DNA of 64,000 nucleotides from Escherichia coli (GTDB taxonomy: Bacteria; Pseudomonadota; Gammaproteobacteria; Enterobacterales; Enterobacteriaceae): assembly GCF_017348835.2 (NCBI RefSeq), contig NZ_CP071375.1, one strand, 5' to 3'. Of this stretch, positions 10,336-10,547 are shown in pieces. Position numbers and translations under genes: made by a program. Each line of letters starts with the position of its first letter. Position 1 is the first letter of the stretch. The notes beneath the pieces were generated by a model. The model was not told the DNA's origin, ran no database searches, and saw only the letters and a program-made list of their open reading frames with translations.

Positions 10336-10547
10336 TCATTGGGATTATGCCGCAGAAACGTTGTATGCAATAACGTTCTGCGGTTGGCTGATGCACTTTC
10401 GAGAGTGCATGTATTGAATTATTTCCAGCTATTATCGATTTTACGTATTTTTTGCATGAGAGAATTTGTACCTCCTCCCAACAACGACCTTCCATGACTT
10501 TCCGGACTTCTGTGGGCCAGCGGACGATGCTGTCCTCGGATGTTGTG

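Follow-up and report, generated by a model that had tools for sequence, protein, structure and literature searches.

A conserved terminator-type hairpin and an allele-specific palindrome between tfa and the sit operon in a Rac prophage of Escherichia coli

The junction between the tail fibre assembly gene tfa and the sit transporter operon of a Rac prophage was analysed in a 64,000-nucleotide stretch of Escherichia coli DNA (contig NZ_CP071375.1), which is referred to below as the window. Two palindromic elements lie at this junction, hairpin 1 and palindrome 2, and an earlier note on the sequence had suggested that they could be remnants of invertase sites or the recombination joint through which sitABCD was acquired. 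On balance we favour a different explanation, in which both palindromes are part of a conserved lambdoid module, and hairpin 1 is probably an intrinsic-terminator type of stem-loop that is under structural selection and at the same time marks the edge of a module.

The two palindromes immediately after tfa were confirmed by reading the sequence and by an inverted-repeat search. The left arm of hairpin 1, gccgcagaaacgtt (10349-10362), and its right arm, aacgttctgcggt (10372-10384), enclose the 9-nt loop gtatgcaat (GTATGCAAT, 10363-10371) and form a stem of 12 bp, composed of the perfect 8-bp helix CCGCAGAA/TTCTGCGG and of CGTT/AACG past one bulged A. The tfa gene on the plus strand and sitD on the minus strand converge on this element, which is located 14 nt past the tfa stop codon (TAA, 10333-10335) and 164 nt past that of sitD. 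Its predicted fold reaches -20.2 kcal/mol on the plus strand (shuffled sequences, -9.4 +/- 2.4; z -4.5; 0 of 200 shuffles) and -15.5 kcal/mol on the minus strand (z -4.0). Palindrome 2 has 10-nt arms with a spacing of 0, one T/G mismatch and 90% complementarity, the sequence given for it in the earlier note, gcactttcgagagtgc, being at 10393-10408; it folds with -9.6 kcal/mol on the plus strand (z -2.7; 4 of 200 shuffles) and -7.9 kcal/mol on the minus strand. The repeats alone are unremarkable, since the window has 236 inverted-repeat pairs with an 8-nt seed within 20 nt. Hairpin 1 stands above chance because it is conserved with compensatory changes in relatives, and the element as such is present in a single copy in the window.

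The structure of hairpin 1 is selected, because its stem covaries across 64 distinct copies. When these copies were aligned and scored against the 12-pair structure, 90% of the cells were paired, nine of the 12 pairs had changes on both sides, and 36 cells carried double changes; none of 500 shuffles attained the observed values, and controls in which the partners were slid by 1-3 columns had 21-50% of their cells paired. The bulged base is free to vary or missing. Palindrome 2 and a second, long stem of the module, GGCTGG/CCAGCC, have no covariation support, the latter being nearly invariant and hence beyond the reach of such a test. Folding of the whole module by RNAalifold yielded a weak consensus on both strands, consisting of the hairpin and this long stem only.

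Both palindromes fall inside a non-coding module of ~100 nt that is common among lambdoid prophages devoid of sit and pin. Its anatomy was established by scanning IMG/VR with two unbiased anchors, the tfa 3' end and the stretch downstream of palindrome 2, which gave ~95 distinct versions. The module begins with hairpin 1 and its conserved loop cGTATGCAAGAac, continues with ~65 bases that are well conserved in a sample anchored on part of the conserved block, so that their apparent conservation is inflated, and terminates in GATTTTAC, with a conserved TAAAAT at the right edge. The left edge coincides with the left arm of hairpin 1 and is preceded by at least 28 different sequences (counted as 10-mers), and straight after the hairpin at least seven unrelated continuations are found, including the rest of the module, a methyltransferase region, the lambda b region and the Rac right end.

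Comparison with individual phages is consistent with this picture. Phage lambda and its relatives match the window over 10100-10385 at 93% and then diverge, whereas mEp460, a prophage of EDL933 and a prophage integrated at dusA (Z1323 is among these DinI-type phages) match through both palindromes up to 10449-10453, beyond which they carry a leftward DinI-like gene and an integrase. An 82-aa DinI-like open reading frame (ORF) on the minus strand is present in ~55 of the ~120 full copies of the module, with its stop codon 4 nt from the right end; in EDL933 the gene is preceded by the SOS-box-like sequence TACTGTATACAAACACAGTA. Thus, in many prophages the module is the 3' untranslated region (UTR) and terminator of a leftward DinI-like gene, and in the window it is detached from dinI. 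In contexts other than tfa, three to five A's stand just before the stem on the plus strand, corresponding to a U-run after the stem on the minus strand (for example, CUGCGGUUUUUCUUUUUCGC in EDL933). The U-run is absent from the window and from lambda because in both the module is joined to the tfa 3' flank, which replaces it.

The 105-nt segment 10346-10450 is present in 5328 of 5426 complete E. coli genomes, in a median of two and a maximum of eight places, and the annotation under the match is nearly always nil. The module is carried by 98% of the genomes because one copy is fixed in the core genome, in the ykgJ-ecpE spacer; up to seven more occur in prophages. In MG1655 this core copy (304217-304314) is a full module beside a decayed dinI-like remnant, and it is unannotated in RefSeq. 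A search with an exact 30-nt pattern of the module, using one genome per species, retrieved Escherichia only, plus three short contigs resembling contamination.

To the right of the module the conserved non-coding sequence extends further, with GGAGGAGG followed by ATG on the minus strand in a reading frame that is not conserved. A strong Shine-Dalgarno-like sequence, GGGAGGAGGT (10470-10479, minus strand), stands ~13 nt ahead of an ATG at 10457-10455, which opens a frame of 12 codons only (MQKIRKIDNSWK*), the whole spanning 10419-10479. The same frame is open through the module into antisense tfa in a prophage carrying avs2, and its ATG is ATA in strain ECOCN22. This is probably not a gene, in spite of the conserved Shine-Dalgarno-like sequence and ATG. 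A coding function of the module was rejected: none of the three small ORFs spanning the region has a Pfam match, and the frames are interrupted in relatives (by the ATA in ECOCN22) as well as in the window itself (by a stop).

The functional reading of hairpin 1 rests on its resemblance to intrinsic terminators, including bidirectional ones: a stable, G+C-rich stem-loop is found just past a stop codon, where an operon ends, and on the minus strand it is also the first strong structure that follows sitD. Most homologues outside the tfa context have a U-tract of terminator length after the stem on the minus strand, with an A-run on the other side, and one of them has an RNA 3' end mapped in vivo. 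An 'orphan' 3' end was listed on the minus strand of the K-12 genome, at 304212/304213, for all three growth conditions of a Term-seq study (Adams et al. 2021, PMC7815308, supplementary files 1 and 3), and the sequence upstream of it, ...CCGCGGTACGTTCTTACATACGATGTACCGCTGTTCTCTTTACGATT, is the K-12 hairpin 1 with a U-rich tail. This site is not Rho-dependent according to the same study (PMC7815308). Other tfa lineages have canonical terminators at the same position just past the stop. The lambda literature was searched for a described terminator after tfa and provided nothing usable.

Several observations weigh against the terminator interpretation. The earlier note had remarked on the lack of a T-run, and none follows either element on either strand; the window thus lacks the U-tract of 7-9 nt, having UUGGCUGAUG on the plus strand and CAUAAUCCCA on the minus strand, which makes efficient intrinsic termination there doubtful. 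The loop, unlike that of typical terminators, is long (9-11 nt) and conserved in sequence. For the K-12 site, the intrinsic-terminator score of 2.78 is just below the authors' threshold of 3.0, the local read coverage is low, and the read count itself is unremarkable given the large minus-strand counts throughout the Term-seq table (PMC7815308). The solitary hairpin 1 of K-12 Rac has no 3' end in the same Term-seq list (PMC7815308). Stem mismatches are about equally G.T (36) and A.C (46), so that an assignment of the functional strand from wobble pairs proved uninformative and a constraint on RNA is not distinguished from one on DNA. Finally, palindrome 2 is not conserved as a palindrome, 9-10 of its 10 pairs being formed in three of 64 distinct modules and 5-7 in the majority. 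A terminator scan, which requires at least five T's in eight positions and a loop of at most 8 nt, made no call at the two elements; this silence is not decisive, since the scan also misses the K-12 copy with its mapped 3' end. By analogy, the window's own copy of the hairpin may still be active.

The following role would be compatible with these data. In its commonest setting, hairpin 1 would end the transcript of a leftward DinI-like gene preceded by an SOS box, with the U-run on the minus strand, and it would keep apart the late (tail-fibre) unit, transcribed rightward, and the accessory genes, transcribed leftward. Since the sit cassette extends only ~20-35 nt past the sitD stop and lacks its own terminator, hairpin 1 and palindrome 2 are the likely first stable 3' structures for the sit transcript. 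They may act as a weak terminator and/or as a barrier to 3' exonucleases for the sit mRNA and any tfa transcript, and might in this way insulate tfa and sit from each other. Since the sequence is conserved among otherwise unrelated phages, it could also provide a patch of homology for the exchange of cargo blocks. The coordinates of the features discussed are given in Table 1.

Table 1. Features of the tfa-sit region with their positions in the window and the evidence used to define them
Feature	Position	Strand	Basis
tfa, tail fibre assembly gene, 194 aa	9751-10335	+	ORF list; Pfam Caudo_TAP 1.6e-43; annotation of strain PE164
Hairpin 1, conserved covarying terminator-type stem-loop	10349-10384	none	Inverted-repeat search, folding, lambda identity, covariation, K-12 Term-seq
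Conserved ~100-nt non-coding module	10350-10446	-	BLAST with module consensus (sole match in the window), right-neighbour census, genome survey
Palindrome 2, ATGCACTTTC/GAGAGTGCAT, near-perfect, allele-specific, inside the conserved module	10391-10410	none	Inverted-repeat search, folding
Extension of the conserved non-coding sequence	10447-10510	none	Alignment with a sit-negative avs2 prophage and a second sit prophage
Left joint of the sit cassette	10511-10528	none	Homology start of phage 21, lambda-like sit phages and plasmids; end of sit-negative similarity
sitDCBA operon	10548-13732	-	ORF list, PE164 annotation, homology
sitD	10548-11405	-	
sitC	11402-12259	-	
sitB, truncated	12256-12768	-	
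sitA	12818-13732	-	
Right boundary of the sit cassette	13915-13945	none	Homology ends; cargo-free alleles

Comparison with sit-negative alleles separates the acquisition of sit from the palindromes. The region aligns over 10250-10449 with DinI-type phages and over 10250-10501 with the sit-negative prophage of the dog urinary tract isolate CUVET16-819, which then continues into avs2 and has weak similarity up to ~10520; the palindromes end at 10410 and do not form the sit boundary. The alignment over 10250-10501 is an outcome of the kind that the earlier note had named as speaking against its own proposal. ColV-type plasmids match the window over 10519-13945, and phage 21 together with a set of lambda-like phages over 10528-13915, phage 21 having sit straight after its own tail-fibre genes without the module. 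In an alignment of the window, ECOCN22, the CUVET prophage, phage 21 and a plasmid, the change-over occurs at ~10511-10520. The sit-specific joint, as judged from these alignments, is therefore ~100 nt to the right of palindrome 2. The proposal that sit entered through the palindromes fails in its literal form, and the more general intuition that a junction exists here stands, since homology breaks off repeatedly at the 3' edge of hairpin 1 (at 10385-10390 in lambda, UTI89 and very many E. coli matches, and at 10387 in cargo-free alleles), and since the homology of a different sit prophage, that of ECOCN22, sets in exactly at 10350.

Hairpin 1 is a recurrent mosaic boundary of the cargo region: a short conserved sequence that has many unrelated neighbours on both sides and at which homologies break. 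The positions of the breakpoints suggest that it may play a role in recombination. K-12 Rac has a solitary hairpin 1 (1434731-1434768), 38 nt before the shared Rac right-end sequence and to the right of pinR-ynaE-ynaM, from which it follows that the cargo of K-12 Rac lies to the left of the hairpin and that of the window to its right.

Among the alternatives, that concerning palindrome 2 survives best. The element is probably incidental, and there is about an even chance that it is entirely functionless, being an allele-specific quasi-palindrome that was either perfected by a template switch or retained as a less decayed version of an old palindrome. Its near-perfect form is confined to the three of 64 distinct modules mentioned above. 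The window allele differs from the majority at five of 20 positions, and all five differences improve pairing, which is the signature expected of templated correction (P = 7e-4 for five random substitutions, a value meaningful only if the common allele is ancestral). Under that condition, the five differences suggest either templated quasi-palindrome correction or selection. At least 272 genomes have the window-type allele with an identity of 99% or higher, so that it is not a private mutation.

The module may, more tentatively, represent an undescribed structured non-coding element restricted to Escherichia, either a small RNA derived from a 3' UTR or a regulatory 3' UTR of SOS-controlled DinI-like genes, with the hairpin serving as a patch for the swapping of cargo. 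Its conservation, its predicted fold and one mapped 3' end would point to such a family. If this were true, the cargo swapped downstream of tail fibres would include dinI, sit, Avs2 and methyltransferases. We consider it a little less likely still, and on the whole rather doubtful, that the module acts as a regulatory small RNA, derived from a 3' UTR or transcribed on its own from the minus strand, with the conserved 65 nt as its functional body, hairpin 1 as its terminator and a crippled copy in the window. Conservation in the 65 nt that separate the hairpin from the upstream gene exceeds that of the stem, the copies of EDL933 and K-12 are predicted to fold into two domains ending in a terminator and U-tail, the Term-seq 3' end lies at the K-12 copy, the module is retained after decay (K-12) or replacement of dinI, and the TAAAAT at the right edge is conserved. 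Against this, the module has no matching -35 element and no promoter match, it belongs to no Rfam family, a literature search for the loop and module sequence found no match, the K-12 copy has the low read coverage noted above, the long stem varies too little for covariation to test it, and the degree of conservation is inflated by the anchoring of the sample. With Rfam 15, nothing was detected at 10336-10450 (E <= 1) or on the EDL933 copy (E <= 10), the only hit of the region being IS009 inside tfa. The module is also distinct from the small RNAs PasB (between tail genes I and J in E2348/69, with a different probe sequence), EcsR1 (in uspF-ompN) and EcsR2 (in yagU-ykgJ); AgvB/AsxR, located at the PR' moron site, were likewise set aside.

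The IS009 hit (RF02111, 223 bits, 10094-10292) is wholly within the tfa coding sequence, and the family appears to model a conserved stretch of tail-fibre-assembly genes and not a separate RNA gene.

It is improbable that hairpin 1 was the actual crossover at which the Rac lineage gained the sit block, by exchange between the hairpin copies of two prophages. Two viral contigs with cargo-free alleles (L135 and L230) have the order tfa, hairpin 1, ~40 nt and Rac right end, with homology to the window that ends at 10387 and restarts at 13939 or 13970; ECOCN22, which has a different sit prophage at the same chromosomal site, shows homology that starts exactly at 10350 and continues through sit to uspF; and some hairpin copies resemble hybrids between the left and right arms of different alleles. 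These observations would suit such an event, but the part of the module that follows hairpin 1 on the right is combined with many cargos other than sit (dinI, avs2), which makes the break older and general, and the sit-specific boundary is located elsewhere (Table 1). There is moreover no sign of recent exchange at the hairpin, since identity between the window and ECOCN22 falls to ~86% over 10350-10700, compared with 97% overall.

The remaining proposal, that the palindromes are decayed hix/gix/cix/pix-like sites of a lost Pin-type invertible tail-fibre segment, can be practically dismissed: pinR does directly follow tfaR in K-12 Rac, as the earlier note had pointed out, and the element adjoins tail-fibre genes, but the best site matches are at background level, the geometry is wrong, no invertase gene is present, and phages that have no invertase nearby, among them lambda and mEp460, carry the element too. 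True sites of this kind lie inside stf and not after tfa (the Mu G, P1 C and e14 P segments). For the comparison we used seven sequences which we take to be those of hixL/R, gix, cixL/R and pixL/R; the best match within 10330-10430 was 13-14 of 26 positions, and 18-52% of random 101-nt windows equal it. No PinR homologue was detected in the window (best tblastn E = 2.5). A 26-bp site of the TTCTCNNAAACCAAGGTTTNNGATAA type, with two 12-bp half-sites and a 2-bp core, was not recognized, as the palindromes have a 9-nt loop or form a 20-bp zero-spaced repeat, and neither was an inverted pair of sites flanking an stf/tfa segment next to a serine invertase, the element being single. Elsewhere, the best gix/cixR-type match of the window (18-19 of 26; ttgatccaatacctaactttaccagc) is at 7733-7758, just after trkG and upstream of the stf remnant, and is borderline with respect to chance for a 64-kb scan with seven sites.

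With regard to known systems, the same element as hairpin 1 is found in lambda between tfa (orf-194) and ea47 (NC_001416, ~22571-22606), with the same arms, GCCGCAGAAACGTT/AACGTTCTGCGGT, and a single base difference in the loop; there too the stem-loop is 14 nt past the tfa stop between convergent genes. In contrast to the window, the lambda sequence diverges right after the hairpin and has neither palindrome 2 nor the rest of the module. The lambda records NC_001416 and J02459 have no annotation at the stem-loop. The locus also resembles the moron and mosaic-boundary architecture of lambdoid phages (Juhala et al. 2000, as cited in PMC4104026), in having a cargo operon after the tail-fibre genes, transcribed against the late operon, and a short conserved junction sequence with many alternative neighbours. 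It differs in that the junction in the window is a covarying hairpin outside the sit cassette, and that phage 21 and plasmids carry sit without the hairpin. The occurrence of sitABCD as a prophage moron has already been documented for LF82 Perceval (PMC9928086) and for phage 21. The element is of an ordinary kind, an intergenic terminator-like hairpin at a moron boundary that was previously unannotated.

For the window, these results mean that sit did not enter via the palindromes and that the palindromes are not a relic of an invertible segment; 10350-10446 can be annotated as conserved phage non-coding sequence and the sit joint placed at ~10511-10528. The hairpin is a concrete case in which conservation and structural constraint coincide at a mosaic boundary of phages, and as such it is relevant to a long-standing issue, namely whether lambdoid phages exchange their modules by way of conserved linkers. 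Nearly all genomes that carry the module leave it without annotation, despite the published Term-seq 3' end in K-12.

The surrounding region was characterized with the help of E. coli PE164, which is identical to the window and in which the Rac prophage (intR, xisR, ralR, recT, trkG, ynaK, stf remnant, tfa) is followed, to the right of tfa, by sitDCBA and then by the host genes uspF and ompN. Homology with K-12 Rac ends at 10317, in the last tfa codons, and the shared right-end sequence, towards attR/ttcC and uspF, restarts at 13939; K-12 has pinR-ynaE-ynaM in between. A mosaic joint is located at 10296-10318: up to 10317 the gene is 96% identical to K-12 tfaR, and beyond this point it has a lambda-type 3' end and flank.

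Within the sit operon, sitB has lost ~255 bp of its 5' part (12256-12818) relative to the operon of ECOCN22. The alignment pieces overlap by 10 nt (12759-12768), which suggests a repeat-mediated deletion. The gene is a pseudogene according to RefSeq in the identical strain PE164, and because of this truncation the transporter is probably not functional in the window. The 3' end of sitD with its short flank (10519-10700) is ~84-86% identical to the plasmid and ECOCN22 alleles, compared with 97-99% for the rest of the operon, and this difference suggests a further mosaic boundary inside sitD.

Two more observations concern structured sequences elsewhere in the window. A perfect 16-nt inverted repeat, ATAAATCAAACCCGCT/AGCGGGTTTGATTTAT (806-839), lies directly 3' of iteS, the anti-phage gene of the iteAS pair in this Rac variant, and looks like the terminator of the iteAS operon. 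RNAs that reach the Rfam gathering score (STnc100, MicC, RydC and sok) were found at 3391-3577, 14752-14891, 16250-16370, 54599-54662 and 55222-55373; the second of these intervals is the uspF-ompN spacer, the site of the described small RNA EcsR1 (PMC4350180).
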